36,920 bases of DNA from Candidatus Undinarchaeales archaeon (GTDB lineage: Archaea; SpSt-1190; JASMDC01), in contig JASMDC010000034.1 in the NCBI GenBank assembly GCA_030753015.1, positions 240 through 37,159 of the forward strand, written 5' to 3'. Each line of letters starts with the position of its first letter. Positions within the stretch are counted from its first letter, which is position 1. This document shows, piece by piece, positions 1 through 30,762 of the stretch. The notes under the pieces were generated by a model, which did not search any database, was not told where the DNA came from, and was given only the letters and a program-made list of their open reading frames with translations. The translations under genes were made by a program, and so were the position numbers.

Positions 1-3000
1 ACGAGCAGCTCGGCACCAACACCAACTCCGCCGCCACCCTGCAACGTCAACCTCGAAGGCACACCTTACCACATCAACACGCAGGATTGCATCTGCGAGT
101 TCCAGTGCGGACCCAACTGGGTGTATGAATCGCACAGCGAGGACCGGATCGATGTTGGTAATATCTACAAGGACTGTCCCAATCCTGAATCCGAAGAAAT
201 GAATAACGATGAGCCGTTCCTGACGAGCGTGACGTGTAAGTACGTTACGCCGACTCCCGAACCGACGCCGACTCCTACACCTTCCCCAACACCCACACCG
301 ACGCCCCCGACAGATATTATCGTAGCAAATACGGAACTGGTCCCGATAGCTCCGACGTTGACCGGGATATGGCAGCCAAATAACTACCTTGCCCAGCACG
401 GTATCAATCCGGACGACGTCCAGGACATCATACTTAAGTTCCAGATGCAAGGTGATCTGAGCGGTGAGTACCCTCCTTCAACTCCACTTGCGTCCCCGCT
501 GAACGAGTCAGTCTCCTTCTGGGTCGATGGTTTGTTCCTCGGTTATTATGGTAACTGCTATTCTGAGACCCAAGAACAAATACCATGCACGCAAGGTGGC
601 TGTTGTCAGTGTCCACAGACAGAGGTGTCTGTACTAGAGCTGGCACTCGACGACGAGCTCAGTATCCTGGTGAAAGGCACGAATGACATTTCCGGCGATC
701 CGTGCCAACTCGGCGCTCCTTTCCGAGCCGAGGTCATGCTCGTAGCAATTCTAAAGGAAGGTGCTGGAACTGGTACCGGTACAGGTACCGGTACAGGTAC
801 CGGTACGGGTACCGGAACCGGTACAGGTAGTGGCACAGGAAGTGGTACGGGTACAGGGGCGGCTTCGGATTACAATCCCACATACTGCACTGTATTGTCG
901 ACCGGCGTATGGGACGCTACAAATGGCTGCTGTGATACCGATGATGCCTGGTGCGCCGATGATGGATGGTACTGCTACGACGGTCATCGGTCACCGCTCT
1001 CCGATCTTTCGGGCGGTGCATGCGCCTGCCTCTCCCCTGGAAGCGGCTGGGACACAACACGCATGTGCTGTGATGCATGGGATTCTTGGCCGACGGCCTG
1101 TCACGCCGAGGAACCAGGGGAGGACCTTGGGGCAGTGGATGCCTACTTTGCTTCCGGAGCCGGACATACGGCGCTCCTTGATTTGGATAAAGAGAGTAAG
1201 ACCATCATAGATAAGATGCGCGAGGCCTACATGGTGGCCTACATATTCGATGCAGGCGCTGATATTTCTGAGATTAATGCGTTCCGAGGTCTGACCGAGG
1301 ATGAGTATCATACCCTGATCCGGGACACGCTCCGCACACGTGCGGACGCGCGGGTCAAGGAGATACTGGATATGCCCCTCTTCCAGCGCCCGCCGGACCC
1401 GACGGCCGATATAGTCGCACTGGTGAACAACGGCCTCACCGCAGAGGAGCTCGACAAGCTTTCTCGGTACAGCGAGAACCGCTCCTACGTGGCGGTCGTG
1501 CTCGGACGCATCGATGCCGCGAGCGTCCCGATCACGGTCAGTGTGGTCAAGCAGTTGGGGGACGACTCTCTCGGTGACGAAGTTCGGCGTCGCCTCATCA
1601 CGCATACCTGGTCGGTGTTCTCTCGCAGGCTCGATCACGATGCAAAGTTGTTCTCAAGTACCTGCTCGCTGGATTCGGACCTGCGCGCTCTCAACGTCCA
1701 AGATGATATCGACCTTGTGGCGATGGAGTACGCGCAGGTCAACGACCTCCTTGTTCTACTGGAGGACGATCCGGACGGTTCGATGTGCGGGAACTGGTTC
1801 AACCGCGGAGGGTGCGGGAGATGGAAAGCGTACACTGTCGCATCTCGTCCCGTCGACATACTCGCATGGACATGCAACGAACCGGAGTGTACATGCCTCT
1901 CACCGACATTCTCGGTCAATGATGTGCTCACGATGTCGAACGCGTTCTCTCCTGCTCAAGAGTACTCATTCCCAGAGGAACGAGGACAGAGCTGGACCGA
2001 CCGGTTCACGCCGTCCGCGGGTAGGATCATCGTAGAATCGGACGGGTGTTTCTTCCTCCGGATGTCCCAGAAGCTTCCCTATGGGCAATTCGTACCTCTC
2101 GATACCGAAGGGGATTGTACGAAGGTGTTTACAGGTGACGGCTGTAGCAGTGTCAAGGATTATGAAGCCCCCGATAGTGAGATTGTTGCTGAAGTGATGC
2201 CGTTCGATGAGAAGGAGGCGTCGCTCTTCGATCCACCTTGGTGGGACGAGAGATGGTCACACCGTGTTCCTGTCACGATCACCAATGCGGTCGCTACTGA
2301 TCTCACGAATGTGCAGGTCGTAGTACCTCTGGACACTAAGGCAATCATCGACGCCGGTAAGATGGGTTCGGATTGCGGCGATATCCGCGTCGTCGACCAA
2401 GAGGGAGCTCTCTTATCACATTGGGTGGGTCCTGACTGTGGGGGGACAGCGACGAAGGCATGGGTGAAGCTCGCAACCCTCCCGGCATCGGGCACAGTAG
2501 TCTTCCATATCTACTATGGGAACAAAGACGTAGGTTCGATCAGTGACGGCCCGTCCGTCTTCGCCCTCTTCGATGACTTCGAGGACGGTAATATCGACGG
2601 CTGGGCCGCCTCCCAGACACTTAAGGACGCCTCTGGGGAGACCTACCAGGTCACCGCCACCAGCGACTCTGCAGGCGCAGGCACGTACAGTCTTTTCATC
2701 GATACGCATGCCAGCTGCTACGCAACGCCGTGTTGCGGTATCTACGCACTAGCCTCCCGGGACGTCGGGCTCCCTGACGGCACGTACGTGGTCGATCTTC
2801 TACGACGGGCCTGGGGGCAGAGGTGGGGTTACTGTGGTAAAGGTGGTGGAGCATGGGTTCCCCGGTCGTTCGTGCGCCACGGTGATGCGGACATATTCTC
2901 AACGACAGCGACCTATACGAGCAACGAATGCGGGAGCGGGGACATCAACTGGGGCGAGGTGACAACTGATCCTTTCGATGTTACGGGCGGCACCGCCACA

Positions 3001-6000
3001 ATCCGCCTTGTCACATACTCCTGGGACTGTGAGGACGGCAGAGGATGGTTCGACGACGTGCGTGTCCGCAAGAGCGTGGACCCTGCACCTGCGGTCACCT
3101 CTGGCGACGAGGAGTCGCTGGAGCCAGAGAGCAGCGACTGGATTCCATCAAAAGCACCATTCGACGAGAACGTAGTTAACAGCGAGACGTCCGGAGGGTT
3201 CGGGACCGCGCTGGCTTTCGATGGCGTAGATGAATACGTGGCCGTGCCTTCTCATGCAACGATCAACTTCGCAGGGGATGACGACTTCACCCTCGAGGCC
3301 TGGGTGTACAACGAGGCTGATGGGACCGCATCACACATCATCGGAAAGCGGTTCGTCGGGCGTTGCGATCTCAGCCTCTATCTGGAGGTGAAAGCGGACA
3401 ACAAGCTCACGTTCGGCATAGACAGCTTCTCGTGCTCGACGTGTGGTGGCTCGAGCGCTCGTTGCTGGAGCTGGACCACGTCCACAACAGAAGTGCCTGC
3501 CAACCGTTGGGCTCATGTGGCGATAGCGAAGAGCGGATACGACGTCAAGATGTACATCAACGGAAAGCTCGACGCCACGGGCACGCTATCGTCCGAATCC
3601 TACGGCGCCAAGACCGCCGCCACCGAACTGAGGATCGGCCGGTCGCGCGGTGAGCATCCTAATGACGTCGTCGATTATTTCAATGGCAAGATCGACGAGG
3701 TGCGTGTCTGGAACACCGCTCTGAACGAGGGGACGATCCGCGATTGGATGTACAAGACGGTCGATGCGACACACACTTCATATTCCAACCTCGTGGCTTA
3801 CTACCCGTTCGATGAGGGCGAGGGCAATACCGCTGCCGACCTCGCGGGTGGGGACAACGATGGAACACTTATGAACATGGAAGGAGGTCCCGTACTCGTC
3901 GAGGTCGCCGCCGATGTGTGTGGTGACGGCCAAAGGGGTTTCGCCTTCCGGGACAGGAATGGTGACGGTATCAATGACGCGCTATGCTCACCGCCCCCGA
4001 AGACCGGATGCTGGTGCACGGGCCCCGACTGCTGTTGTTGCTACGTCAAGTATCACGATCACGATCTTGGCGCCGTGTACAAGCCGGAAGCGCTCGTCGT
4101 CCAGTTCGCGTCTAGCTACCCGAGCCCTGGGAAGAGCGCTGAGGTGTCAGTGTCCACCGATGGTCACGAATGGACCCTGATCGGCGAGACAAATCCCGGT
4201 TGGAAAGGGAGTCCGCGCAACACAACCTTCAATGTCAAGGGTAAATCCTTCCGATTTGTTCGTGTCAAAGCCACACAAGGGTACAACGACGACTGGTCGG
4301 GCGTATGGGTTTACGAATCTGAACGTCATGGTCCCTTCGACCTCGCGTTCGGCCGTGCGGGTGATACACTGGACACCCCGTCGATCTCTTGTGGTAGCCT
4401 CCCTTGCCGCTATATATTCAAACCGGGGGCGGGTAATCTCCAGGTCGCGACCGACCAGGAACTGAACATCACGCTCCGCAAGCTCGGGACGTTCGAACGG
4501 ATAATCAAGCCGGCAGCCCAGGACATGATCGCGAGCGCTGAGGAGGACCAGATCGCCGTCATCGAGAACCTCATCGCGATTCTCGGCGACGCTCCGGAGG
4601 GTCTTGGTATCGGCCAAGAGCTCCGGGAGATCGGAAGGGAGGCATCTGAGGTGCTCAACCAGAGCGTCGATGTCATTTTCGCGAGCGAGGCCCTGTATTC
4701 CGTCGGTCTGGACCTGAACATAACTGGGCTAACGAACGAGACCCTCGAAGCCCTGGTGAACGGTACATGGCTCGCTCTACAGCTCGATATCGAAGGATCC
4801 CGGGAGGTCATCTCCGACGCGGCCTCACTATCGGATCATGCGGCCCGGACCATCCGTACCAGAGAGAACGTGCGCACGATCGCGGAACAGGCATTAGTGA
4901 AGGTAATCCTTGAACGGGCCTCCGCGGCGAAGGAGGGCCGTCTCGCCCTCGTACTCGGCGCTCGCAAGCTCGTCGTGGATATCTATGCGAGCGTTCTCGG
5001 CTTTGAGGCGACGGCTGAGCTAGTCGCCAAGCTCAATCTCGCTATCGAGGAGTTAAAGAAGCCCGAGCCTGACGAGGCCATCGTCGAGGACGCCCTGCAG
5101 TTCGTACGTGAGAACCTCCCCGAGGTCGAGTATATGGGTTCGAACGTCGTACCCGTCCTCGGACTGGGTCGGGGGGAGCTCGCAGCTTCGGCACGCATTG
5201 CCGGCGGGACCTCTACGGGGATGTCCACAGTCGTAGAACGAATGCAGGGTCTGATCGAGGGGACATCCGTTAATACATCAGTCGACACCTACCTTGTTAA
5301 TGGCAAGCAGGTCTCTGTGTTCACCATGTCAATCGAGAACGAGGGGGACAAGGAGCTAAAGGACGTGGGCATGCCCCTCAAGATCGCGAAATGTCATCTC
5401 ACATGGTTCAACGATGCTAACTTCGACGAGAAGCCGTCGATGGTGCGGCCCGATCCGCTCGTGCTCTGGAACCTCGGCAACCTCAGGCCCAAGCAGAAGA
5501 CCGAGCTCAAGTTCTCGACGACGCGTATCTTCTGCTCGGACGGCTCCACGTGCACAGGGGGCGCCTTCTGCGCGGACATCTGCCTCACCTTGGGACAGTG
5601 CGCGACGTCCTGCCAGGTATGTGGTCAGGTGTGCGACTCCGATCCCGATAAGGACGAGATGTGCTCGAGCGATGGTGGGTGCGTACCAAGGGGCTCGAAG
5701 CTCCGTAACGAGCGGTGTGGATGCGATCCTGAGTGCGAGACGGACAACTGTGTCCGCAGCGTGTGCTGCGAAAAGAACGAGTTCGCTGATGCTTCGGGAC
5801 AGTGCACCGATGTCGTGAACATGATGAATGTAGAAGTGGAAGCGCTCTCGATAGTGCTCGATGACGAACGCGTGATCCCGATCCACCTAATAAATCCTCT
5901 CAGTCGGCTCGCAGACGTGGACGTCATCATCGTGGAGGGCGGGGCGTTCGCTGAACTTTCGCGACAAAAGGTCGCCCTCGGTCCGGGCGAGAAGCAGCTG

Positions 6001-6234
6001 ATCGGGCTCCGTGTACAGGCCCTCCAGGCCGGCACCCATTCCGTGGTGCTCGACCTGAGCTCGGCTGACGGGATACGTGAATCCTTATCCATTTCCGTAC
6101 AGGTGCTCACGGATACAGAATCGATGGGCATCGAGATGCGTACGGCACCCGGTCCCGGCCTACCCTTGCTGACGGTCCTTGCGGCAGTATGCGCTTTGTG
6201 GACCTCCACTGGACGTCGACGCGAGAGTGACTGA
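1..6234 (+). CDS. Very large mosaic cell-surface protein, 5'-truncated (Pro/Thr and Gly/Thr linkers, Cys-rich repeats, DUF2341-like, LamG/ConA-like, F5/8-like and Ig-like domains, PGF-CTERM-like tail)
   Basis: Frame 1 is open from base 1 (TSSSAPTPTPPPPCNV...), so the GTG at 121 is not the true start. DUF2341-type WWDERWSHRVPVTI...GDIRVVD...WVKL...YYGN...FDDFE from 2239; LamG-type ALAFDGVDEYV...FTLEAWV...WAHVAI...YINGKL...FNGKIDEVRVWN at ~3205-3880; C-terminal APGPG + hydrophobic stretch + RRR. Confidence 0.85.
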   Translation, partial: TSSSAPTPTPPPPCNVNLEGTPYHINTQDCICEFQCGPNWVYESHSEDRIDVGNIYKDCPNPESEEMNNDEPFLTSVTCKYVTPTPEPTPTPTPSPTPTPTPPTDIIVANTELVPIAPTLTGIWQPNNYLAQHGINPDDVQDIILKFQMQGDLSGEYPPSTPLASPLNESVSFWVDGLFLGYYGNCYSETQEQIPCTQGGCCQCPQTEVSVLELALDDELSILVKGTNDISGDPCQLGAPFRAEVMLVAILKEGAGTGTGTGTGTGTGTGTGTGTGSGTGSGTGTGAASDYNPTYCTVLSTGVWDATNGCCDTDDAWCADDGWYCYDGHRSPLSDLSGGACACLSPGSGWDTTRMCCDAWDSWPTACHAEEPGEDLGAVDAYFASGAGHTALLDLDKESKTIIDKMREAYMVAYIFDAGADISEINAFRGLTEDEYHTLIRDTLRTRADARVKEILDMPLFQRPPDPTADIVALVNNGLTAEELDKLSRYSENRSYVAVVLGRIDAASVPITVSVVKQLGDDSLGDEVRRRLITHTWSVFSRRLDHDAKLFSSTCSLDSDLRALNVQDDIDLVAMEYAQVNDLLVLLEDDPDGSMCGNWFNRGGCGRWKAYTVASRPVDILAWTCNEPECTCLSPTFSVNDVLTMSNAFSPAQEYSFPEERGQSWTDRFTPSAGRIIVESDGCFFLRMSQKLPYGQFVPLDTEGDCTKVFTGDGCSSVKDYEAPDSEIVAEVMPFDEKEASLFDPPWWDERWSHRVPVTITNAVATDLTNVQVVVPLDTKAIIDAGKMGSDCGDIRVVDQEGALLSHWVGPDCGGTATKAWVKLATLPASGTVVFHIYYGNKDVGSISDGPSVFALFDDFEDGNIDGWAASQTLKDASGETYQVTATSDSAGAGTYSLFIDTHASCYATPCCGIYALASRDVGLPDGTYVVDLLRRAWGQRWGYCGKGGGAWVPRSFVRHGDADIFSTTATYTSNECGSGDINWGEVTTDPFDVTGGTATIRLVTYSWDCEDGRGWFDDVRVRKSVDPAPAVTSGDEESLEPESSDWIPSKAPFDENVVNSETSGGFGTALAFDGVDEYVAVPSHATINFAGDDDFTLEAWVYNEADGTASHIIGKRFVGRCDLSLYLEVKADNKLTFGIDSFSCSTCGGSSARCWSWTTSTTEVPANRWAHVAIAKSGYDVKMYINGKLDATGTLSSESYGAKTAATELRIGRSRGEHPNDVVDYFNGKIDEVRVWNTALNEGTIRDWMYKTVDATHTSYSNLVAYYPFDEGEGNTAADLAGGDNDGTLMNMEGGPVLVEVAADVCGDGQRGFAFRDRNGDGINDALCSPPPKTGCWCTGPDCCCCYVKYHDHDLGAVYKPEALVVQFASSYPSPGKSAEVSVSTDGHEWTLIGETNPGWKGSPRNTTFNVKGKSFRFVRVKATQGYNDDWSGVWVYESERHGPFDLAFGRAGDTLDTPSISCGSLPCRYIFKPGAGNLQVATDQELNITLRKLGTFERIIKPAAQDMIASAEEDQIAVIENLIAILGDAPEGLGIGQELREIGREASEVLNQSVDVIFASEALYSVGLDLNITGLTNETLEALVNGTWLALQLDIEGSREVISDAASLSDHAARTIRTRENVRTIAEQALVKVILERASAAKEGRLALVLGARKLVVDIYASVLGFEATAELVAKLNLAIEELKKPEPDEAIVEDALQFVRENLPEVEYMGSNVVPVLGLGRGELAASARIAGGTSTGMSTVVERMQGLIEGTSVNTSVDTYLVNGKQVSVFTMSIENEGDKELKDVGMPLKIAKCHLTWFNDANFDEKPSMVRPDPLVLWNLGNLRPKQKTELKFSTTRIFCSDGSTCTGGAFCADICLTLGQCATSCQVCGQVCDSDPDKDEMCSSDGGCVPRGSKLRNERCGCDPECETDNCVRSVCCEKNEFADASGQCTDVVNMMNVEVEALSIVLDDERVIPIHLINPLSRLADVDVIIVEGGAFAELSRQKVALGPGEKQLIGLRVQALQAGTHSVVLDLSSADGIRESLSISVQVLTDTESMGIEMRTAPGPGLPLLTVLAAVCALWTSTGRRRESD
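247..312 (+). repeat. Pro/Thr low-complexity linker (TPTPEPTPTPTPSPTPTPTPPT)
   Basis: Degenerate ACN-CCN codon repeat inside the surface-protein ORF. Confidence 0.85.
760..858 (+). repeat. Hexanucleotide (GGNACN)n repeat encoding a Gly-Thr/Ser linker
   Basis: ggtaccggtacaggtaccggtacaggtaccggtacgggtacc... translates to GAGTGTGTGT...GSGTGSGTGTG. Confidence 0.9.
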
Positions 6235-6245
6235 GGAGAAGGACC

Positions 6246-6830
6246 ATGACGCCCGCAGCTGGGACATGTACCGGTTGGGGTGGCCAGAACACCGCGATGG
6301 GGAAACCGTCCGGATTCTCCTATCCACAGCCCACGTATTATGGGAATAATCTGGCGCAGCAACGGTCTGAACAGGTCGCGTGGACACCACCTGAAGAGAA
6401 AGAGAGCGGCGGTTGGAGTGCTGGAAGGATCCTCATGCTCCTCATCATCCTCGTCGGGATAGTGGGTCTTCTCGTCTGGCGGAGCGGTCTCGTCCCAACG
6501 TCGTCATCAAGCACGGGGCAATCCGGTATCGCTGAAGGGGTACACGCCATCGAGGCGACACTGAACAAGAACTCGTTCTCGGTCGGAGAGACCGTCGTCA
6601 TGCAGGGGATGCGTATCGGAGCTGCACCCGGTGAAGAAGAGACGATACGCAGCATGTGCGAGTGGCGTGACCTGGAGCGGGGTACGTCAGAGAGCACGGA
6701 CGCGGCGGTGGACGACTTCGGGATGTTCTCTCACAGCTTCACACCCCGGCATGTGGGTCAGTACGAGGTCGGCCTCTACGTGGGTGGTTCGGTGACCCCA
6801 CAGACGACGCTCACTTTCACCGTCACCTAA
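6246..6830 (+). CDS. Single-pass membrane protein with C-terminal Ig-like beta domain
   Basis: Follows the giant ORF by 11 nt with a GAGGAGAAGG RBS; TM segment ILMLLIILVGIVGLLVW; LNKNSFSVGETV...HSFTPRHVGQYEV pattern. Confidence 0.75.
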   Translation: MTPAAGTCTGWGGQNTAMGKPSGFSYPQPTYYGNNLAQQRSEQVAWTPPEEKESGGWSAGRILMLLIILVGIVGLLVWRSGLVPTSSSSTGQSGIAEGVHAIEATLNKNSFSVGETVVMQGMRIGAAPGEEETIRSMCEWRDLERGTSESTDAAVDDFGMFSHSFTPRHVGQYEVGLYVGGSVTPQTTLTFTVT

Positions 6831-6922
6831 GGACGGCTGCCTCCGTGCACCCCGGTGACAGGGGGCAGGCCAATCGGTGGCGCTTAAAAATCTACGTCAG
6901 ACGTCCGGAGCGAGGGACGGAT

Positions 6923-8410
6923 ATGTCTCAGAAAAGCTTCACACTATCGGGTGTGCTCCCCGCGCTCGTCACTCCTTTCGATAAGGAGGAGGACCTTGAC
7001 GAACCCGCGTACCGCACGCTCATCTCACATCTCATCGACCAGGGGGTCACCGGAGTGGTTCCAATGGGTACTACGGGCGAGTTCTCCAACATGACACTAG
7101 AGGAGCGCCAGCGTGCCGTGGAGGTGTGCATCGATGAGGTGAACGGGAGGGTGCCCGTGGTCGCAGGTATCGGTGACAGCGCTACCAAGCACGTCATCGC
7201 AGGAGGCCTTCATGCCATGGACGCGGGTGCGGACGCCGTCATCATCGTCACGCCCTACTACCTCAAGCCCGGGGCCAAGGGGCTCTACGAGCACTACGAC
7301 ACCATCGCCAGCAAGCTCGAGCTGCCCATCGTGCTCTACAACATCCCCGTGTGCACGGGGCTCAACCTCCCCTGGCAGGTGGTGGAGGACCTGGCCGACA
7401 TCGACAACATCGTTGCCATCAAGGACTCGTCAGGTGACATGAGGTACTTCATGTCCGTCCTGGAGAAGGTGGGCGACACACTTTCGGTGCTCATCGGTTG
7501 GGACGAGCTGGTCCAGCCCGCCCTTGCCGCCGGTGCTCATGGGATGATACTTGCCTCGGCCAACATAATCCCGGACATGTGGCTCCAGGTCTACGATCAT
7601 ATGAAGGAGGGCCGCATCGAAGAGGCCGTCGCCATCCAGCGAAAGGTCCAGAAGTTCACGCGCATCATCGTTGCCAGTGGCGCCCTCGGTACCAAGTGCT
7701 GCATGAACGACATGGGCGTCATACCGTCGGCCCGATGCCGTAAGCCCCTCATGCTCGGCGACACCCTATCCTTTGAGTTCCGCGACGAGCTGCGGGTTGA
7801 GCTGGAGACGTTCGGCAAGCTGGAGAAGAAGGCCATCACCTTCGAGTTCTCGCCCGATGAGCGTCTCGACTCTCGGTTCTTCCGCGTGGGCCTCACTCCC
7901 GAGACCATCAGCGGCTTCGACCTGCGTATCGGCGAGGCGCTGGTGGGCGACGGGAACGAGGTGGCCCACATCGACATACTCATCGGCAAGCGCGACGGAC
8001 CGGTGGGCGATGCCTATGCCCGTGCGCTCTCCAATCCCGTGAAGGGCTATGAGGTGCTACAGGTCATCCTGGAGCCGAACATGGTCGTCAAACCCAGTAC
8101 GATCATGGTCCCCACGGTGAGGAATCAGAGCCTCCGCCACTCGAGCCTTGTGTACGGCCCCGCCCAGGCTGCCATCGGCAAGGCGATCATGGACTCGGTG
8201 GAGGCTGGGATCCTGCCCGAAGTGGAGGAGCTGTTGATGATCGCCAACGTGTTCGTCCACCCGTCCGCCTCGCGACGAAAGCGAATCCATATCAACAACT
8301 ACAAGGCCATGCGCAACGCTATCAGGCACGCCATGGAAGGAACCCCCACGGTGGCAGACGCGCTCGAGCACGCCCGCTCTGCGCGCCACCCGTTCAGGGA
8401 CGAGATCTAG
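6923..8410 (+). CDS. fae: Fusion: DapA/NanA-family class I aldolase (N-terminal ~300 aa) + formaldehyde-activating enzyme Fae (C-terminal ~160 aa)
   Basis: PALVTPF, MGTTGEF, IVLYNIP and Schiff-base IKDSSGD motifs; from 7925 IGEALVGDGNEVAHIDILIG...GPAQAAIGKAI...VFVHP...NNYKA...HPF matches Fae. Start moved to ATG 6923 (GAGGGA RBS; CTTAAAAA box at 6883-6890). Confidence 0.9.
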   Translation: MSQKSFTLSGVLPALVTPFDKEEDLDEPAYRTLISHLIDQGVTGVVPMGTTGEFSNMTLEERQRAVEVCIDEVNGRVPVVAGIGDSATKHVIAGGLHAMDAGADAVIIVTPYYLKPGAKGLYEHYDTIASKLELPIVLYNIPVCTGLNLPWQVVEDLADIDNIVAIKDSSGDMRYFMSVLEKVGDTLSVLIGWDELVQPALAAGAHGMILASANIIPDMWLQVYDHMKEGRIEEAVAIQRKVQKFTRIIVASGALGTKCCMNDMGVIPSARCRKPLMLGDTLSFEFRDELRVELETFGKLEKKAITFEFSPDERLDSRFFRVGLTPETISGFDLRIGEALVGDGNEVAHIDILIGKRDGPVGDAYARALSNPVKGYEVLQVILEPNMVVKPSTIMVPTVRNQSLRHSSLVYGPAQAAIGKAIMDSVEAGILPEVEELLMIANVFVHPSASRRKRIHINNYKAMRNAIRHAMEGTPTVADALEHARSARHPFRDEI

Positions 8411-8443
8411 GATATTCATGAGATAGACAAAGAGGATGATACC

Positions 8444-9700
8444 ATGGACATCAAGGACCTACAGATCACCCAGACGCGCCTCGACGAGGTGAACGCCGTC
8501 CTCACGGACCCTACCAATGACCTCGTCTCCGACCTGTTCAAGCTCATCGAGAAGTACGGTGGCATCGAGGAGATCCGCCGAAGAGCCGCTGAAGCAGGTA
8601 AGGTGAAGAACATTATGCTGCGCCTTGGCGAGATGCGCTCGCCCTTCGTAAAGGACCTGGAGTGGCTCATCGAGCAGAAGGAGAAGGGCGCGTTCATCTC
8701 CATCGATGACTACCGGAAGAAGACGCTGGGCGACAAAGCCGTGGGAATGACCTTCGATACTACCTCGGCGGTCACGCTCGAGATAAGCGCTTGCCAGTAC
8801 TTCTCCTTCTTCATGGCGCAGGCCCGTCAGGCCATAGAAAAGGGAGAGCTCATGCCCGGTCGCTTCATCCGCGTCCGGAACATGAAGGAGCAGGAGTCCG
8901 ACGGCGACCTTCTGGCCATGACCGCGGCCATGCAGATCATCGGCGCCAGCTGGTGCGAGACCTTGGACACTAAGGGGACCGACGGTTCCAACGTGCACCT
9001 GGGTGGTCCCGAGACCATCACCGGCTACTTCGGCGGGGTCGGTCAGCCAAACGAGTACGCTCTCAAATGGGCGGACGAGTTCCTCTACTATCACACCAAC
9101 TTTGGTGTGAAAGAGGTGCTCAACCTCAATCCAGGGACCGTGCTCATCGGCTACCTCCTCTACAGGCTCGGAGTCGATATCCAGTTCAAGATATCGGTGT
9201 TCATGGGCAATGACAATCCCTACGCTGTGATGTGGACGCTCATGCTAGCGAGGCTGCTCGCTCGTGAGGACGGTACGACTCCCCTCATCGGATTCAACTT
9301 CTCCAACTCCGTGGACAACACGACCATCGAGGCCAGCTCTCATGTCCGCAAATCCCTAGGACTCGAGGAGAACGTCAGGTTCGAGCATCACATCACCGAG
9401 ACCTGGAAGAGCATCGTGCGCCAGCCCTACAACCGGAGAGACGAGCTCATGGAGATCGCACCGACGGTGCCCAACATCTCGGCCAAGCACGAGGGCGGTG
9501 AGGTCGATGTGGACAGTAAGCGTGATCACCCGTCGGACATCCTCGACTACTTCGTACCGCGTGCGGACATCGAGGCGCAGGGGCTCATGGATGCAATGAC
9601 CCGTAACTATCTGGACAAACACGAATCGGTGAACATCACTGCTCGGGCACTGATGGAGCACGGCCAGACGTTCGTAGCGGCGACCGAACTGCACAAGTAG
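8444..9700 (+). CDS. 418-aa soluble protein of unknown function, probably an enzyme, co-transcribed with the DapA-Fae fusion
   Basis: 33-nt gap with GAGGATGA RBS; strongly C/G-ending codons like the upstream gene; motif-like segments ETLDTKGTDGSNVHLGG, GYFGGVGQPN, EHHITE, KHEGG. Confidence 0.85.
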   Translation: MDIKDLQITQTRLDEVNAVLTDPTNDLVSDLFKLIEKYGGIEEIRRRAAEAGKVKNIMLRLGEMRSPFVKDLEWLIEQKEKGAFISIDDYRKKTLGDKAVGMTFDTTSAVTLEISACQYFSFFMAQARQAIEKGELMPGRFIRVRNMKEQESDGDLLAMTAAMQIIGASWCETLDTKGTDGSNVHLGGPETITGYFGGVGQPNEYALKWADEFLYYHTNFGVKEVLNLNPGTVLIGYLLYRLGVDIQFKISVFMGNDNPYAVMWTLMLARLLAREDGTTPLIGFNFSNSVDNTTIEASSHVRKSLGLEENVRFEHHITETWKSIVRQPYNRRDELMEIAPTVPNISAKHEGGEVDVDSKRDHPSDILDYFVPRADIEAQGLMDAMTRNYLDKHESVNITARALMEHGQTFVAATELHK

Positions 9701-9768: not shown

Positions 9769-10281
9769 ATGATGGCCGACATGGACCTTGCTGACGGCGA
9801 TTATGGCCGGGCGGACGCTGCTGAGGGATACAGTACGACCGACGACCTCTCGGCAAAGGACGTTGGGTACGCCGCTCTCGCGGCAGGTGTCATCGGCGGC
9901 GGTATCGCCCTGTACCAGGCCAACGAGTCAGGGGCCCTCGACGAGTTCAAGGACTACATGACCCGTCCTCACCCTGACGGGCGGGCGATCTCGGCGATCA
10001 AGTGCATCGAGTCCGATTACGCCGACACTCCCCATCACATGCTCGCTCACGACCTGGCCCGTGTTGTCCAGGACTCCGAGGACGGCTCCTTCGGCGACTA
10101 TAAGCCCACGACGACAGCAGGATGGGAGCTACGTAAGGCCATCGAGACGGATTTCGACTATAATCCGAGCCACATGACCGCCTCCGCCGTCGCGAAGTAT
10201 CTCCAGGTGGACGGCAACATGCACGATGGAGACTTCTCCGCGTGGATCAAGGACGGTAACTACATCTGGCACGAGCGGTAG
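9769..10281 (+). CDS. 170-aa hypothetical protein with a hydrophobic segment, tandem paralogue 1
   Basis: Colinear with 10343..10855 (shared ANESGALDEFK, ARVVQDSEDG, YLQVDG, NYIWHER); has its own TATA box. Confidence 0.85.
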   Translation: MMADMDLADGDYGRADAAEGYSTTDDLSAKDVGYAALAAGVIGGGIALYQANESGALDEFKDYMTRPHPDGRAISAIKCIESDYADTPHHMLAHDLARVVQDSEDGSFGDYKPTTTAGWELRKAIETDFDYNPSHMTASAVAKYLQVDGNMHDGDFSAWIKDGNYIWHER

Positions 10282-10342: not shown

Positions 10343-10855
10343 ATGATGCTCGACGTGGACCTTGAGGGCGGGGCCTATGGTCGGTCCGATGCTGCGGACG
10401 GGTATGCTACAGCGGAAGACCTGTCCGGCAAACAGGTAGGGTACGCAGCTCTTGCCGCAACTACCATCGCTCTGGGCATCGGTCTCTACAAGGCGAACGA
10501 ATCGGGCGCCCTTGACGAGTTCAAGGAGTACATGACCCGCCCAAATCCCGATGGCCGGGCCGTGGCGGCCATCCGGAACATAGAGTCCGGGTATACTACC
10601 AAGCTGCACCACATGATGGCCGCTGACATGGCACGTGTGGTCCAGGATTCTGAGGACGGCCATTTGGGCGATTATACTCCGAACTCCGGCTGTGGATGGG
10701 AGCTCAAGAAGGCCATTGAGAGCGGATTCGAGTACAAACCCCAGCACGGTGCTGCCGCTGCTGTTGCCCGATACCTTCAGGTGGACGGCGACATCCACGA
10801 CGGCGACTTCTCAGCGTGGATCGAGGACCGCAACTACATCTGGCACGAGCGCTGA
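10343..10855 (+). CDS. 170-aa hypothetical protein, tandem paralogue 2
   Basis: Same length and motifs as 9769..10281. Confidence 0.85.
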   Translation: MMLDVDLEGGAYGRSDAADGYATAEDLSGKQVGYAALAATTIALGIGLYKANESGALDEFKEYMTRPNPDGRAVAAIRNIESGYTTKLHHMMAADMARVVQDSEDGHLGDYTPNSGCGWELKKAIESGFEYKPQHGAAAAVARYLQVDGDIHDGDFSAWIEDRNYIWHER

Positions 10856-19546: not shown

Positions 19547-19664
19547 TCTCCCTCATGAGGGTGGAACAGATGAGGTATGAAAGCCTTTAACGAATGACTA
19601 TCGCATGGGCTCCGTTGCCTCTCAGCGACAGATTTATAAGTCAGGCAGGGCACAATCTCACGGC

Positions 19665-20312
19665 ATGGAGCCCCTCCTATTACAAGGACTCCTCTCGATT
19701 GGAATAGTGAGCGGGCTCTTCTACATGTTCTTCCACCGGGATCCGGAACGCATGCCTCCTAGTGAGGACGGTATCATCCTCAGTCCGGCAGACGGTTGGA
19801 TCAAGTGTGTCAAGCCCATCAAGGCCGGAGAGGTTCCGGTCGTGGAGAAGTATGGTCGTGAGATCGAGCTCGTAGATCTTCCGCACATGGGGATCCTCAA
19901 GGAGGGTCAGGGCGGTTTCTTGGTGAGCGTCTACATGTCCCTCATGGACGTCCACGTGAACCGGTCCCCCGTAGGAGGGACTGTCGAGAACATCCAGTAC
20001 CGCCCGGGAAAGCTCAAGCTCCTTATGGGACGCACGTTCCAAGCGGAGAACGAGAGAAACACACTTGTGCTCCAGAATGAGGACACTGACATGAGAGTAG
20101 GAGTTGTCCAGATCGCCTCACCTTTCGTGCGCAAGATAGATTGTTACGTCGCTGACGGTGAGCTCGTCGAGCTTGGTCAGCGCATCGGTATGATCCGGCT
20201 CGGGAGCCAGGTCGATGTGATCCTTCCTGATAAGGAGGGGCTCGAGATTGTTGCCCGCAAGGGGATGCGCGTCCGGGCAGGGACCTCCATCTTGGCAAGG
20301 TTACGACAATGA
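19665..20312 (+). CDS. psd: Phosphatidylserine (archaetidylserine) decarboxylase proenzyme
   Basis: FFHRDPER, LSPADG, DVHVNRSP, ENERN and the RLGSQVD self-cleavage motif; TTTATAAG at 19633-19640 lies 24 nt before ATG 19665. Confidence 0.92.
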   Translation: MEPLLLQGLLSIGIVSGLFYMFFHRDPERMPPSEDGIILSPADGWIKCVKPIKAGEVPVVEKYGREIELVDLPHMGILKEGQGGFLVSVYMSLMDVHVNRSPVGGTVENIQYRPGKLKLLMGRTFQAENERNTLVLQNEDTDMRVGVVQIASPFVRKIDCYVADGELVELGQRIGMIRLGSQVDVILPDKEGLEIVARKGMRVRAGTSILARLRQ

Positions 20313-20908
20313 GCTTCACATTCCTTTGCGAGTGTGCCAGAGACTTCCGTGCCATTGGATCCCCCATACCTACCCTTGGGATGGCCGTCCGACTCATGGT
20401 CCGCCAGGCCGGAGTGAAGGAAGGGGATATCGTGGCCGACGCAGGAGCCGGCACAGGTGTCATCGCAATCGAGGCTGCGCGTAAGGTCGGTCCGTCCGGT
20501 CACGTAATAGCCGTCGAGATGAACGAGAACCTCTGTACCAAAGCACGTAAACGCATCGCGAGCGCGGATCTGGAAAACCGCATTACACTTATCCAGGGTG
20601 ACGCCTTCAAGCTGCGCGAGTACCTCTCGGACTTAGACGAACGAGCCGAGCGGTTCGATTCTGTGCTCTCGACAGTGCCCGTTAGCTACATGCCCGATCC
20701 GACCAGTTATATCAAGAGCCTTTACGACGCGACCAAACCCGGCGGCACTGTCGTCCAGGAAACCCATTTTGCACAGAAGGTACGACACCTATTCCGTGAG
20801 GTCGGTCTCCAGAGTATCCACTCCGCGTTCACGATAATCACCTTCGCTCCCGGAGCAGTGGTCTCAGGTACAGTACCGAAGGAAGATAAGGTGTCCGACC
20901 AACGATGA
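20309..20908 (+). CDS. Class I SAM methyltransferase, PmtA-like (phospholipid N-methyltransferase candidate)
   Basis: DAGAGTG motif I; N-terminal FRAIGSPIPT and FDSVLSTVP resemble rhizobial-type PmtA; ATGA overlaps with both psd and pssA. Confidence 0.75.
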   Translation: MSFTFLCECARDFRAIGSPIPTLGMAVRLMVRQAGVKEGDIVADAGAGTGVIAIEAARKVGPSGHVIAVEMNENLCTKARKRIASADLENRITLIQGDAFKLREYLSDLDERAERFDSVLSTVPVSYMPDPTSYIKSLYDATKPGGTVVQETHFAQKVRHLFREVGLQSIHSAFTIITFAPGAVVSGTVPKEDKVSDQR

Positions 20909-21606
20909 TCCGTGGGATGCTCGCTTTCATTGGAATAAAGGACCTGGTCACAATCTGCAATGCCTTCGCAGGATTCGCCGCAATCGTTGTGGCCGCCAAA
21001 GGGGGGAATCTCCCGCTCGCATGCGGGCTAATCTTCCTTGCAGCGGTTTTCGACTTCCTCGATGGTGCCTTGGCACGCGCAACAGCGCCCAATCCATTTG
21101 GCAAGGAACTTGACTCACTCTGTGATGCCGTCTCCTTCGGATTGGCTCCGGCCGCACTTGTGTTCTTCCAGGGTCCGACCGCACCTCTTTACTATCTTGC
21201 GGCCCCCTTGATCTACCTCGCCGGTGCGATCTTCCGCTTGGCGCGCTTCAATGTCACGACACAGAAGAACTTCACAGGAATACCTTCGCCTGTGGCCGCC
21301 CTCACTGCTACGGCCTTAACGCTTGGTGGTCTTTCGTGGCAGATGCTCCATGGTACACTCATCGTGCTCTCTTTCCTCATGGTCTGCGACATCGAGTACC
21401 GGTCCCAGAAGAGCTTCTCGTCCCGTCAGATCCTCCTCATCGCCATCCTTGGAGTATCGGTCTACCTTGCAATAGGCTCCTTGGGTGGTAACGTCCTTGG
21501 GACCGCAGGATCAGCAGTGGGCGTCGGCTACATACTCTCCCCTCTCGTGCTGGGTGGGAAAAAACCTGATTCTGAAGAAGAGGGCAACGACACCGACGAT
21601 GATTGA
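20905..21606 (+). CDS. pssA: CDP-alcohol phosphatidyltransferase, (archaetidyl)serine synthase
   Basis: DFLDGALAR...FGKELDSLCDAVSFGLAP, FRLARFN, FTGIPSP. Confidence 0.9.
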   Translation: MIRGMLAFIGIKDLVTICNAFAGFAAIVVAAKGGNLPLACGLIFLAAVFDFLDGALARATAPNPFGKELDSLCDAVSFGLAPAALVFFQGPTAPLYYLAAPLIYLAGAIFRLARFNVTTQKNFTGIPSPVAALTATALTLGGLSWQMLHGTLIVLSFLMVCDIEYRSQKSFSSRQILLIAILGVSVYLAIGSLGGNVLGTAGSAVGVGYILSPLVLGGKKPDSEEEGNDTDDD

Positions 21607-21657: not shown

Positions 21658-22335
21658 ATGGGCCATGGTATGGGTCTAACAGATGAGATGCGCTATCTAC
21701 TACTAGTCTCTCTCTTCGGTTTCTCCGGTGTCATCCTTACATGGGCCCTGAACATAGTGTTCGTGTACCTGGCCAACGAGATCGTTGTTTCGTTGGGTGC
21801 TGTGGGGCGGCTCATCCCGGGACTTGCTGACCATCTGGTGACCTTGGTATCTGGTTCGCTGTGGGGATTCTTCCTGTTCCTCGGTGTTTCCCAGGCTCGA
21901 GGTAAACGACAGAAGACGCACTCCTCCCAATTTACCTTGTGCTCCCTCTCCTTGGGATTCTCTCTTCTGGGCGCGAGCGCTATAATCGAACTCCTTGCAA
22001 TGATACTCCCTGGACTCGTTGATGTCGTCGGCCATATCCTACATGGAGCGCTCCTCGGCTGTCTTTATGGTGCCTTCCTGGCCCAGATCCTGCGCCTTAA
22101 TGTCTGGCATATGTTCGTCCCTCTCCTCAGTGTCGGTGGTGCGGTCGGCGCCTTGGCAGTAAATGTTCTCCAGGATGTTCCAATGAGTTCCCAAGGCACT
22201 GTCGAAATGTATATCGCGCAGTACGCCTTTACGTCCCAAGGATTCGTGCTCGGCCTGTTCGCGGGATACGCATTCTTCCTCTGCGACATGCACATAGGGA
22301 TATTGCGCCATGCTCGGTGGATGCCCGAGGACTAG
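21658..22335 (+). CDS. Polytopic membrane protein of unknown function
   Basis: About 6 hydrophobic helices; TTTATATT at 21628-21635 points to ATG 21658. Confidence 0.7.
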   Translation: MGHGMGLTDEMRYLLLVSLFGFSGVILTWALNIVFVYLANEIVVSLGAVGRLIPGLADHLVTLVSGSLWGFFLFLGVSQARGKRQKTHSSQFTLCSLSLGFSLLGASAIIELLAMILPGLVDVVGHILHGALLGCLYGAFLAQILRLNVWHMFVPLLSVGGAVGALAVNVLQDVPMSSQGTVEMYIAQYAFTSQGFVLGLFAGYAFFLCDMHIGILRHARWMPED

Positions 22336-23663
22336 CTGTATTCTGTGGGTTCTTTCTCCCTTAAGCGTGCGACCTCTTTCCTGAGGCGGTGGACGATCTC
22401 ACGGTCAGGGAGCAGACCACCGGGTGCAGACAGAGGTGCCCGCATGCGTACAGGTACACCATCCATCCGGTATGCTGTCCCCTCGGACTCAATTCCTGTG
22501 AAAGTGCAGGGAATGTACACGTCCGCGAGCTCGGACGTGACGTTCCATACCGGATCGATAACGATGACGGGGATTCGTCGTAGGGCGCCGAGGGACTTGA
22601 GCGGTAAGTGAGCAGCCGGGTCCGAAGCTACCACTAGGAGACAGTCGCACTCCCCCGAGGAGAGGACAGGGAACAGGTCCGTCTCACCCGGATTATAGCG
22701 GGGGTGGCCGCGGGAGAGGTCAACGGCGAAAGGGTAGCCCGTTCGCCAAGTGAACGCCTCACATGCACCCGTGACGTTATAATGGCCTCGCATGGGGAGG
22801 ACCACAGCCTTCGTGTGTTCACTCAGGTCCCTGATGAGGGAGAGGAGGGCGTCAACGTTACGATGACGGCCGGTCGATGTCGTCAGTCCCAATCCGAAGA
22901 AGAAGGCACAGAACTCACTGCTCTTGAGCGTGTCGGAGAGCCAGCGGAGCTCATCCAGGGGAACACCTTCGATGGGATCCGGAACGTCCTTTCCTTGTAC
23001 TAGCATACGTAGAGCGCATAGAGTCTCGTAATCGCTCCCAGGTCGGACCTTGATGAACTTGTCCGCTACTTCAGCCGTACCAGTGGGGCGGACGTCGACC
23101 ACGACCACCTTTCGATCGTCCCGGCCCTTTTCACGGAAAGCACCCTGCGGGAAGACGGTGTAGCGGCTCAAGTGCCGGTCATGGGATGCGGCGGGATTCG
23201 AGCCCCAGTATACCACACAGTCCGCGTGGTTGAGCACCTCGCCAAGTGTCGCGGAGGATATTCCCACTTCCTGGATGGCCTGGATGGAGGGTCCGTGGCA
23301 GAAGGATGAGCAATTGTCGACCAGGGCGCCCAATTCCTCAGCGAGATCAAGCCCCTCGCATATGGTCTCAGTACTTGTTGAGCTCCAGCCGAACAGGACT
23401 GGACGCTCTGCCTTCTCAAGGAGCATTGCCGCTTGTGTCAGGGATTCATCCAGTGTGGCATCGTGGAAGTGGTCAGCCCGGACATCCTTCAAATCTCCGC
23501 TCTTTACCCTGATTCTGGGGACGAGCTCTCGAGATGTTGGCCTGGAGAAGACGTGATCGCCGACCTTGCAGGCATTGCAGACCTCCGTTATCATGTTCCC
23601 CGAAGTACGCACTTCTATGTCGTCACAGAGGCATCCGCAGTAGGGACACACGACATCCTTCAC
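22332..23663 (-). CDS. fwdB: Formylmethanofuran dehydrogenase subunit B (Cys form)
   Basis: CPYCGCLCDDI...C Fe-S motif, FCHGPS metal ligand, YWGSNP...H.RHLSRY, PMRGHYNV, GYPFAVD, RYNPGE, AYRMDGVP. Confidence 0.93.
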   Translation of the reverse strand: MKDVVCPYCGCLCDDIEVRTSGNMITEVCNACKVGDHVFSRPTSRELVPRIRVKSGDLKDVRADHFHDATLDESLTQAAMLLEKAERPVLFGWSSTSTETICEGLDLAEELGALVDNCSSFCHGPSIQAIQEVGISSATLGEVLNHADCVVYWGSNPAASHDRHLSRYTVFPQGAFREKGRDDRKVVVVDVRPTGTAEVADKFIKVRPGSDYETLCALRMLVQGKDVPDPIEGVPLDELRWLSDTLKSSEFCAFFFGLGLTTSTGRHRNVDALLSLIRDLSEHTKAVVLPMRGHYNVTGACEAFTWRTGYPFAVDLSRGHPRYNPGETDLFPVLSSGECDCLLVVASDPAAHLPLKSLGALRRIPVIVIDPVWNVTSELADVYIPCTFTGIESEGTAYRMDGVPVRMRAPLSAPGGLLPDREIVHRLRKEVARLREKEPTEYS

Positions 23664-29257: not shown

Positions 29258-29342
29258 TACTCCCACGACAGCTACCGTAGTAAATGCTATAAGCAGCCAT
29301 TGACATGATATATGCTAGGGTGTTGGAAAACCCTCCGTGAGA

Positions 29343-30698
29343 ATGGTACGAGAAGGGAAGAAGAAGGCAGGACGCGAACGTCGATCATCCCCCAAAGGAT
29401 CACGTGATGACTCCCGGGATCACGCTCCTGTTGACGATGCAATCGAGTTGAAAGAGATCGGTGATGAGAGGCCGCTCCAAGTCGTGAACCGTCGGGACTT
29501 CGTGCAGGAAGGGATTACCTTTCTTGCGCTGGCCGGTCTTGCCGGTATAAGCTTACGTGCGCTCAAACCCCCGACGACAGGACCTGATCCGACACTCCAC
29601 CCCCTTGAGGGCCCACCTTCACCCATTCCGGGTGATAGCGCTTCTGGACCGTCACCAGCAGGCACTCCCGTTCCAGGTCTGCAAGAAGCGAGCTTCTATG
29701 TCCAGGCAGCAGGTGGCAAGGTCGCCTGCGACCTGTGCCCTCATGGCTGTGTCCTCTCGCCAGGCCAACGCGGCATCTGTCGGGTCCGGGAGAACCATGA
29801 CGGACGCCTTTATACCCACGGTTATGGGAATCCGTGCTCGATCCATATTGATCCCATCGAGAAGAAGCCACTGCTCCACTTCCTCCCGACCACCACGGCG
29901 TTCTCTATCGCTATCGGTGGATGTAACTTCAGATGTCTCAACTGTCAGAACTGGGAGATCTCCCAGCGTACTCCCGAGGAGGTCGAGCAAGGGGAGTTAA
30001 CCCCTGCCGAGGTAGCCGAGCTCGCCAAACGGGACGGCTGTGCATCGGTCGCCTATACGTACTCGGAGCCATCTGCGTGGTACGAGTACATGCTCGACAG
30101 TGGGACCGCGACACGTGCACTGGGTATGCGGAACGTGTGGGTGACGAACGGCTATCTCAACCAGAGGCCGCTCAAGGAGCTGTGCAAGGTGCTCGATGGT
30201 GCGAACGTCGACCTCAAGGCATTCTCTGAGAAGATGTACAGCGAGCTATGCTCGGGGACATTACGACCGGTCAAGGACACCATCGTGACGCTCAGGGAAC
30301 AGGGTGTATGGGTGGAGGTTGCAACACTACTGGTCCCCGGGTATACCGATGACATGGACCTTTTACGTGATATGTGCACTTGGCTGGTCAAGGCCCTCGG
30401 TCCTGATGTGCCGCATCATATCTCCCGGTTCCATCCGGACTATAAGCTTACTCACCTTCCTTGGACACCTATGAAGGCACTGAAGGAAGCTCGTGAGATC
30501 GCACGAGATGCTGGGGAGCATTATGTCTATGTGGGTAACGTCGCCCCATCCTCCGACATCCCCGATCCCGAGACGACCTACTGTCCGTCATGTGGACAGG
30601 CCGTCATCGAGCGCACTGGTTTCGTGGTAACAAAGTTCGATTTAGAAGGTGGCTCCTGCCCGAAATGTGGTGAATCCATTGCAGGAGTGTGGGCCTAG
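29343..30698 (+). CDS. amrS: AmmeMemoRadiSam system radical SAM enzyme with N-terminal Tat-like extension
   Basis: CDLCPHGC...GICRVR, DPIEKKPLLHF, GCNFRCLNCQNWEISQ, AYTYSEP, HISRFHP, CPSCG/CPKCG; N-terminal NRRDFV followed by a hydrophobic helix. Confidence 0.92.
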   Translation: MVREGKKKAGRERRSSPKGSRDDSRDHAPVDDAIELKEIGDERPLQVVNRRDFVQEGITFLALAGLAGISLRALKPPTTGPDPTLHPLEGPPSPIPGDSASGPSPAGTPVPGLQEASFYVQAAGGKVACDLCPHGCVLSPGQRGICRVRENHDGRLYTHGYGNPCSIHIDPIEKKPLLHFLPTTTAFSIAIGGCNFRCLNCQNWEISQRTPEEVEQGELTPAEVAELAKRDGCASVAYTYSEPSAWYEYMLDSGTATRALGMRNVWVTNGYLNQRPLKELCKVLDGANVDLKAFSEKMYSELCSGTLRPVKDTIVTLREQGVWVEVATLLVPGYTDDMDLLRDMCTWLVKALGPDVPHHISRFHPDYKLTHLPWTPMKALKEAREIARDAGEHYVYVGNVAPSSDIPDPETTYCPSCGQAVIERTGFVVTKFDLEGGSCPKCGESIAGVWA

Positions 30699-30762
30699 TT
30701 CTCTCACACTCACCACTGTATTTTTCAATCTTGACCGAATGCTAATCGGCGAGGGATCAATA

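Follow-up and report, generated by a model that had tools for sequence, protein, structure and literature searches.

What reaction is carried out by the 418-amino-acid (418-aa) protein that is encoded directly downstream of a fusion between a DHDPS-family aldolase and formaldehyde-activating enzyme (Fae) in a seawater archaeon of the Candidatus Undinarchaeales? The two genes lie in a 36,920-nucleotide (nt) stretch of DNA (assembly GCA_030753015.1, contig JASMDC010000034.1, forward-strand positions 240 to 37,159), the whole of which we refer to as the window. We propose that the protein is an enzyme that makes or uses 4-hydroxy-2-oxobutanoate (HOB), the keto acid of homoserine, and we place it at the HOB/homoserine node because this is the one metabolite that all of its recurring gene partners touch; the weight for and against this placement is, in our judgement, about equal. 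A preliminary description of the sequence had assigned the protein to no named family and had suggested that it acts at the substrate of the aldolase, the two genes forming an uncharacterised C1/C4 pathway module.

The placement is drawn from the neighbourhoods of homologous genes, compared for the best 80 of at least 591 loci together with the window. The homologue was recovered as a called open reading frame (ORF) in 73 of these 81 loci and the other eight were dropped; ORFs were called crudely (the longest of at least 70 aa, overlaps being resolved by length) and clustered by BLASTP, and representatives of the clusters were given Pfam and NCBIfam annotations. Within two genes of the homologue, PanB is found in 19 loci, the set of homoserine dehydrogenase (HomDH) and aldehyde:ferredoxin oxidoreductase (AOR) in 15 and a DHDPS-family gene in eight, so that a module of two genes is too narrow a description. 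PanB, which moves a hydroxymethyl group between methylene-tetrahydrofolate (methylene-THF) and C3 of a 2-oxo acid, is encoded upstream on the same strand in 17 loci (gaps of -8 to 97 nt, and one of 386), downstream in one and divergently in one, and the neighbouring PanB scores as an equivalog (TIGR00222, 297 bits against a cut-off of 207). HomDH, likewise scoring as an equivalog (NF004912, 421 bits against a cut-off of 373), follows immediately downstream in 12 Thermoplasmatota loci (gaps of -62 to 50 nt) and is itself followed by AOR and an aminotransferase; these three genes occur in other orders in one locus of Caldisericota and one of Hodarchaeota. The DHDPS-Fae fusion is the immediate neighbour in seven of the 73 loci, comprising the window, five of Promethearchaeota and one of Bathyarchaeia, and stands three genes away in one locus of Hermodarchaeota. 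In addition, four loci have a class I/II aminotransferase immediately downstream, and an amino-acid dehydrogenase of the Glu/Leu/Phe/Val type with CBS domains adjoins the homologue in five.

The pairing with the aldolase is also found within a single polypeptide. P0271, a 759-aa protein from a Logan contig, joins a divergent DHDPS-like part (PF00701) to a member of the present family (58% identical over 99% of the query); it was the single match in a search of longer proteins, one sequence on one contig, and the poor yield of that search is weak evidence. Over its N-terminal 340 residues, which retain the Schiff-base motif K-D-S-S-G, P0271 shares 47% identity (E 2e-113) with a separate DHDPS-like gene, without Fae, that adjoins the homologue upstream in locus L069; the two partners thus occur both as adjacent genes and joined in a single chain. 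In the fusion of the window itself PF00701 scores 258 bits and PF08714 176 bits, and the DHDPS domain reaches 238.7 bits with the dapA equivalog, against an NCBIfam cut-off of 206.15. Despite this score the domain is, to judge from its residues, probably not the lysine enzyme DapA, since Cys or Leu replaces Arg in the YN(I/V)Pxx(R)TG motif of seven fusions ('YNIPVCTG', 'YNIPACTG', 'YQLPALTD'), at the place that we take to be that of the aspartate-semialdehyde-binding Arg138 in E. coli DapA, in the motif after the catalytic Tyr. Most simply read, an aldolase of this type joined to Fae would make or cleave HOB via pyruvate, formaldehyde and tetrahydromethanopterin (H4MPT). Homologues of the 418-aa protein are thus linked to dapA-like and fae genes, as had been expected, and the suggestion that the protein acts at the aldolase substrate is supported by this linkage and by the natural fusion as an inference.

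In the model that we favour, in which HOB as the aldolase substrate, the action of the enzyme on HOB, the direction of flow and the chemistry are what we infer, the 418-aa enzyme would produce HOB in a catabolic direction and alternative routes would then dispose of it. In the window the enzyme would deliver HOB to the neighbouring aldolase-Fae fusion, which would split it to pyruvate and formaldehyde, the formaldehyde being trapped as methylene-H4MPT. In other lineages HOB may be converted by PanB to pyruvate and methylene-THF, or it may pass by way of the aminotransferase (or the amino-acid dehydrogenase) to homoserine, by way of HomDH to aspartate semialdehyde and by way of AOR to aspartate; ThrB and ThrC would likewise start from homoserine. 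As to the chemistry, C3 of a 2-oxo acid could be activated by a bound metal or a Lys imine, with a group then eliminated or added at C4. Two minority guesses can be made for the substrate, namely 4-methylthio-2-oxobutanoate (from methionine), which with water would give HOB and methanethiol, and a tetronate (erythronate or threonate), the dehydration of which would give HOB.

The HOB-producing direction is suggested by genomes in which the gene accompanies the HomDH-AOR set while Asd, ThrC, PanB, Fae and DHDPS are all missing, by the aldehyde oxidation that AOR enzymes normally carry out and by the patchy distribution of the family. The enzymes concerned were sought in 11 carrier genomes, among them the genome of the window (G000), three of Thermoplasmatota (G017-G019) and that of Lokiarchaeum (G020). 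HomDH is present in ten of the 11 (not in G024), Asd in seven (absent from G017-G019 and G024) and ThrC above its cut-off in eight (absent from G017-G019); with a single HomDH and neither Asd nor ThrC above the cut-off, the HomDH of G017-G019 is therefore not biosynthetic. Fae was found in none of the five genomes G017-G021 and PanB in two of them, and no DHDPS-family member was found in G018 or G019, two genomes that carry the gene without DHDPS, PanB or Fae. No PanB was found in G000 or G006, where the fusion is the sole member of the DHDPS family. G000 also encodes Asd, an adjacent HomDH-ThrC pair and Mch, and Mch together with the FwdB gene of the window shows an H4MPT/methanofuran C1 route in this archaeon.

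The same partners could be run in the opposite direction, with PanB or the aldolase-Fae fusion building HOB from pyruvate and carrier-bound C1 and the 418-aa enzyme carrying HOB toward homoserine-derived products, for example by adding sulfide at C4, which would yield homocysteine's keto acid, or by a step feeding ThrB and ThrC. Such an anabolic role is favoured by ThrC and a proposed homoserine kinase directly upstream of the homologue in L043 (Elusimicrobiota), by ThrC in the Lokiarchaeum locus, by a homocysteine-methyltransferase/MTHFR fusion downstream in L033 and by the C1 genes that surround several panB copies. In L062 (Anaerolineae) genes for a CdhD-like protein, an AcsC-like protein (CdhD and FeS), RACo, a pterin-binding methyltransferase, PanB and the homologue share one strand over positions 15-7248, so that the last two close a Wood-Ljungdahl (CODH/ACS) methyl-branch cluster; among Chloroflexota, the panB-homologue pair is accompanied by FTHFS in L026, by FolD and FdhD in L073 and, in L029, by a Mo enzyme resembling formate dehydrogenase and by a CCG/4Fe-4S protein. 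Furthermore, the DUF39 homocysteine enzyme was found in none of the 11 carriers, strong matches to PF01053 occur in five and are missing from six, and G024 has the panB-homologue pair and ThrC-like genes with neither HomDH nor Asd, a point that is weakened by the incompleteness of metagenome-assembled genomes. Against the anabolic role stand the usual oxidative direction of AOR, the lack of ThrC and Asd, and hence of threonine making, in the Thermoplasmatota carriers, and the Asd, HomDH and ThrC that G000 already possesses. The spread of the gene, found in nine of 91 sampled Thermoplasmatota and, for the window's own phylum, in two of 17 genomes (carriers from a single genus; a small sample and an uninformative profile), also fits an accessory catabolic trait better than core biosynthesis. 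On balance we consider the anabolic role unlikely.

As PanB is the commonest neighbour, the family might instead supply an unrecognised step of pantoate and coenzyme A (CoA) synthesis beside PanB, such as a substitute for ketopantoate reductase or a source of beta-alanine. The panB copy adjoining the gene is the only one in G021, and among the five Chloroflexota carriers PanD was found in none and PanC in three. The C-terminal domain of PanE is nevertheless present in nine of the 11 carriers, including all five Chloroflexota, where it is close to PanC in the three genomes having both, and the reductase step is therefore not vacant there. The two carriers without it, G000 and G006 (about 99% complete), have the gene with neither PanB nor phosphopantothenate synthetase, the latter being found in four of the 11 carriers (the three Thermoplasmatota and Lokiarchaeum); G017-G019 likewise carry the gene without PanB, and among the 91 Thermoplasmatota the gene (9) and PanB (17) coincide in one genome, with no complementarity. 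The predicted structure, moreover, is a barrel and not a Rossmann reductase, and ketopantoate reductase (PanE/ApbA) itself was rejected, with no match to PF02558 or PF08546 and a model of helical domain and barrel instead. A role in pantoate synthesis therefore appears to us very unlikely. As a separate observation, G017-G019 hold homologues of ketopantoate reductase and phosphopantothenate synthetase, PanB was not found in them, and 74 of the 91 sampled Thermoplasmatota are without PanB (for the archaeal CoA pathway, see PMC6650551).

Several points weigh against placing the enzyme at the HOB/homoserine node. The loci compared are the most similar 80 of at least 591 and thus a biased sample, and in 31 of the 73 none of PanB, HomDH/AOR and DHDPS lies within two genes. 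The route from aspartate through homoserine and HOB to pyruvate and C1 is complete on paper with an aminotransferase or dehydrogenase, so that the step left for the 418-aa enzyme is a guess. The canonical Asd, HomDH and ThrC of G000 make the direction unreadable from gaps in that genome, and the methionine guess is backed only by chemical reasoning and by the lack of PF01053-type lyases in six of 11 carriers, which are possible auxotrophs. It could also be that the neighbourhoods mislead altogether, a conserved enzyme of some unrelated pathway lying near amino-acid and C1 genes by chance. The 31 loci without a recurring partner would agree with this, as would the nature of the carriers, for the most part anaerobes that ferment amino acids and have many genes of this kind; the same-strand spacing of the partners is tight, on the other hand, with many gaps below 50 nt and several overlaps, the partner types recur over phyla and at several places in the tree of the family, and a natural fusion to the aldolase exists. 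We therefore think it quite unlikely that chance explains the associations. The tree, a quick maximum-likelihood tree of the 73 proteins with SH-aLRT values as its only support, groups the window protein with Thermoplasmatota L011 and L015 (SH-aLRT 95), outside the Asgard/Bathyarchaeia clade that holds the other DHDPS-Fae neighbours. Well-supported branches force at least five label changes for DHDPS, at least eight for PanB and at least five for HomDH/AOR, and partner links therefore arose or were lost repeatedly.

Some other readings were tried and rejected. Anaerobic methionine salvage has supporting neighbours too few and too loosely placed (IF-2B/MtnA-like genes no more than a few genes away in L035 and L052, a nucleoside phosphorylase next to the homologue in L076 and an adenosine deaminase next to it in L074), and a substitute for MTHFR or SHMT is not called for, the canonical enzymes (PF02219 and PF00464) being present in all 11 carriers. 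Descent as a distant paralogue of its own partners PanB or DHDPS was discarded on an hhalign probability of 0.1, the value obtained when the 39-sequence alignment of the family was compared with each of the PanB, DHDPS and HomDH alignments. Among other neighbours, those of 'cluster 10' (Arg-rich, without a Pfam match) look like spurious antisense ORFs from the crude ORF calling, and no family was found for two 326-aa neighbours in Lokiarchaeum.

The 418-aa ORF is an intact, real gene for a strongly conserved, enzyme-like protein. It begins 33 nt beyond the end of the fusion ORF, the true start of which is likely the ATG at 6923, and it is preceded by a ribosome-binding-like sequence (Table 1). 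G+C content at third codon positions is 0.81 in this gene and 0.82 in the fusion gene, the top two of seven window genes measured (0.67-0.78 in the other five; 0.575 for total G+C of the whole window). The maximal 19-residue Kyte-Doolittle mean of 1.23 means that the protein is without a membrane span. The spacing, ribosome-binding site, C/G-ending codon bias and solubility reported in the preliminary description are all borne out by these values. Three metatranscriptome runs from two studies contain contigs of 151-229 nt that are 100% identical to the two genes, three over parts of the fusion and four over parts of the 418-aa gene, which may reflect DNA carry-over; none of these matches bridges the 33-nt gap, and they thus do not show co-transcription. 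Marine and seawater metagenomes from several studies also contain the DNA of the locus.

The family to which the protein belongs is large and, in sequence space, alone. At least 8000 significant homologues were found among 90%-identity clusters (all scored candidates being significant), and the best 120 listed, 69-100% identical, bear no informative names ('hypothetical protein' where named), the lone exception being one JGI label of 'MazG superfamily'. Among 1.84 billion 50%-identity representatives there are 457 matches at E<=0.001, of which the top 150 listed are mostly short pieces with a few full-length forms at 39-64% identity; the family is therefore tight and isolated. A relative is carried by at least 591 GTDB species genomes (591 of 598 matched stretches, with one genome per species), and the best 80 loci, all 61-72% identical to the window protein, span Thermoplasmatota, Promethearchaeota including Lokiarchaeum ossiferum, Hermod- and Hodarchaeota and Bathyarchaeia among archaea, and Chloroflexota, Caldisericota, Calditrichota, Synergistota, Bacillota, Spirochaetota, Armatimonadota, Elusimicrobiota, Acidobacteriota, Gemmatimonadota and others among bacteria. 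The absence of a named family was correctly stated before. The window protein matches no Pfam or NCBIfam family at E<=0.1, 21 members compared with Pfam at E<=10 give scattered chance matches, each in one or two members, and PDB sequences yield no match to the single sequence (E<=1) or to a 39-sequence profile (E<=10), so that no characterised unrelated family claims the protein. The ESM Atlas gave no usable feature match, its model of the protein being poor (pLDDT 0.39), and literature searches at the level of listings and abstracts found no paper on the family or on a natural DHDPS-Fae enzyme.

The confident AlphaFold2 (AF2) model obtained from 21 sequences (pLDDT 88.1, pTM 0.89) predicts a helical N-terminal domain followed by a (β/α)8 barrel, with eight strand-helix units over aa 105-349 and then a C-terminal helix and strand. 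Conservation, measured over 39 diverse homologues, gives 58 invariant positions, concentrated in the predicted barrel as listed in Table 1. At or just after its strands lie E113 and S115 (β1), R140 and R145 (β2), K249, S251, D257 and N258 (β5), N285 (β6), R312, E314 and H316 (β7) and K348, H349 and E350 (β8). The Gly-rich loops and possible metal ligands picked out by the preliminary description can be located on this model. DTKGTDGSNVHLGG (aa 175-188) and GYFGGVGQP (aa 194-202) both fall in a loop after β3 (aa 172-203) that holds the invariant residues G178, N183, H185, G194, G197, G198, G200 and P202 and that, as modelled, is probably a mobile lid. Of the ligand motifs, EHH (aa 314-316) and KHE (aa 348-350) contribute the invariant E314, H316, K348, H349 and E350; D391, K392 and H393 of DKH (aa 391-393) do not reach 90% conservation, which makes DKH a weak candidate.

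The model belongs among TIM barrels, 795 of 48161 chains matching at Z>=8 and all 50 listed matches being barrel enzymes or designed barrels, and its closest folds are aldol- and lyase-type barrels. Foldseek ranks class II fructose-bisphosphate (FBP) aldolases, DAHP synthases and transaldolase best (E about 3e-4, TM 0.3-0.45). VIA-align puts glutamate mutase subunit E first (1cb7_B, Z 12.6, root-mean-square deviation 4.2, 253 residues aligned over 16-409), with near-ties to CutC (12.4), another at 12.2, designed barrels (12.1), N-acetylneuraminate lyase and BKACE (both 11.8). Neither of two barrel families considered individually stands out: class II aldolase PF01116 has no Pfam match, Foldseek E about 3e-4 at TM 0.33-0.44 and VIA-align Z of 10.8-11.5 with many families tied, and BKACE/DUF849 has no Pfam match and four entries at Z 11.2-11.8, inside the tied range. 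With Z values of 10.8-12.6 tied over dozens of unrelated barrels, the fold matches support no chemistry, which also counts against our placement of the enzyme. The structural search foreseen earlier has thus produced a confident barrel and generic look-alikes only. One could still take the top match at its word and see in the protein the substrate-binding barrel subunit of a cobalamin-dependent mutase or aminomutase-like enzyme that rearranges a C4 or C5 amino acid, for glutamate mutase subunit E leads both VIA-align runs and is the only match also covering the N-terminal domain, and Foldseek lists lysine 5,6-aminomutase with the highest query TM (0.38). The tie at 12.4, 12.2 and 12.1 with unrelated barrels, the lack of a Pfam match to mutase families and the lack of any protein with a B12-binding domain among annotated neighbours make this reading very improbable in our eyes. 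A predicted complex of the fusion with the 418-aa protein scored 0.00 against a mark of 0.32 and is uninformative either way. We conclude that the family consists of undescribed (β/α)8-barrel enzymes with a helical N-terminal domain, and that the fold is silent on their chemistry.

Table 1. Positions in the window of the 418-aa gene, its predicted structural parts and associated features.
Feature	Position	Strand	Basis or remark
418-aa ORF, undescribed family	8444..9700 (stop included)	+	ATG start
GAGGA, ribosome-binding-like	8432..8436	+	7 nt 5' of ATG at 8444
DHDPS-family aldolase (PF00701) and Fae (PF08714) fusion, 5' partner	6845..8410	+	Pfam/NCBIfam profiles
N-terminal all-helical domain, six helices (aa 1-101), predicted	8444..8746	+	AF2 model; 4/58 invariant positions
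(β/α)8 barrel (aa 102-418), predicted	8747..9697	+	AF2 model; 54/58 invariant positions
Invariant Gly-rich loop after β3 (aa 172-203)	8957..9052	+	AF2 model; pLDDT <50 at aa 186-199
Formylmethanofuran dehydrogenase subunit B (FwdB)	22332..23660	-	TIGR03129, 510 bits vs cut-off 328; outside operon

The remainder of the window holds several features of separate note. Directly 3' of the 418-aa gene, two tandem paralogous 170-aa proteins are encoded at 9769-10281 and 10343-10855 (+); neither has a Pfam match, the first has no NCBIfam match either, and no counterpart of the pair was seen adjoining the homologue in the other 72 loci. A 2037-aa protein at 121-6234 (+), which may be longer as its frame is open to the window start, combines PT-rich and GT/GS dipeptide repeats with many Cys-rich stretches and a C-terminal hydrophobic tail and looks, on this composition, like a giant cell-surface protein. 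Co-directional lipid head-group genes for phosphatidylserine decarboxylase, an S-adenosylmethionine (SAM) methyltransferase and a CDP-alcohol phosphatidyltransferase occupy 19605-21606 (+), and a radical SAM enzyme of the AmmeMemoRadiSam system (TIGR04337, 368 bits) followed by a metallo-beta-lactamase-fold protein occupies 29337-31392 (+).

The family is among the larger ones without an assigned function, and it keeps 60-70% identity over both prokaryotic domains. Through its conserved partners the family is placed at the meeting point of amino-acid carbon and the one-carbon pool. Its carriers, among them Thermoplasmatota, Asgard archaea, Bathyarchaeia and Anaerolineae, are dominant in anoxic sediments and are also present in seawater; knowledge of the reaction would fill a hole in the metabolic models of these uncultured groups. 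Taken furthest, the placement at the HOB/homoserine node would make the protein the first enzyme of a widespread natural anaerobic route that makes HOB from a C4 skeleton, the most attractive candidate being methionine's keto acid, which would give off methanethiol; HOB would then yield pyruvate and carrier-bound C1, on H4MPT via the aldolase-Fae fusion in archaea and on THF via PanB in bacteria, or would be oxidised to aspartate. We advance this full route tentatively and hold it to be doubtful. If true, it would be a new link from amino-acid breakdown to the C1 pool in marine and sediment archaea, including Asgard archaea.

How does the proposed system compare with those already known? Class II metal-dependent aldolases (PF01116) and DAHP synthases resemble the 418-aa protein as its best Foldseek matches (E 3e-4, 4.6e-4 at rank 10; TM 0.31-0.33 by query length) and in being barrels with His/Glu-rich strand ends, but there is no profile match, identity is 7-13% in the listed matches, and they have no counterpart of its N-terminal helical domain or Gly-rich lid. 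The partner fusion recalls archaeal Fae-Hps (NF009833, 141 bits to the Fae part), in which Fae is fused to an aldolase-type barrel making or taking formaldehyde, although the barrel of the partner is of the pyruvate-using DHDPS type and not a hexulose-phosphate synthase. A likeness in arrangement is also seen in the pairs of a dehydratase or hydratase with a DHDPS-family aldolase that belong to non-phosphorylative sugar-acid and meta-cleavage routes, such as E. coli YjhG/YjhH, the 2-keto-3-deoxygluconate (KDG) aldolase routes and hydratase-aldolases such as PhdJ. As in these pairs, a barrel-type enzyme has as its gene neighbour, and in one case as its fusion partner, a DHDPS-family pyruvate aldolase of the Schiff-base type, and a dedicated partner handles the aldehyde, here Fae and in other lineages AOR. 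Unlike them, the present family has no sequence relation to any known dehydratase family; it would involve formaldehyde as the aldehyde and a keto acid of only four carbons, and PanB can stand in for the aldolase as partner. In the literature searched, at the level of listings and abstracts, HOB appears in engineering and review papers only, and the engineered homoserine cycle and HOB aldolase modules (pyruvate + formaldehyde -> HOB -> homoserine) involve the metabolites that we propose here, namely pyruvate, C1, HOB, homoserine and threonine. These modules, so far as the accounts available to us describe them, employ promiscuous aldolases and include no counterpart of the 418-aa protein. Once the reaction is known, the chemistry of pyruvate, formaldehyde and HOB, so far built only by engineers, could also prove to be natural, and the full route described above, if true, would be a natural, reverse-running counterpart of the engineered homoserine cycle.

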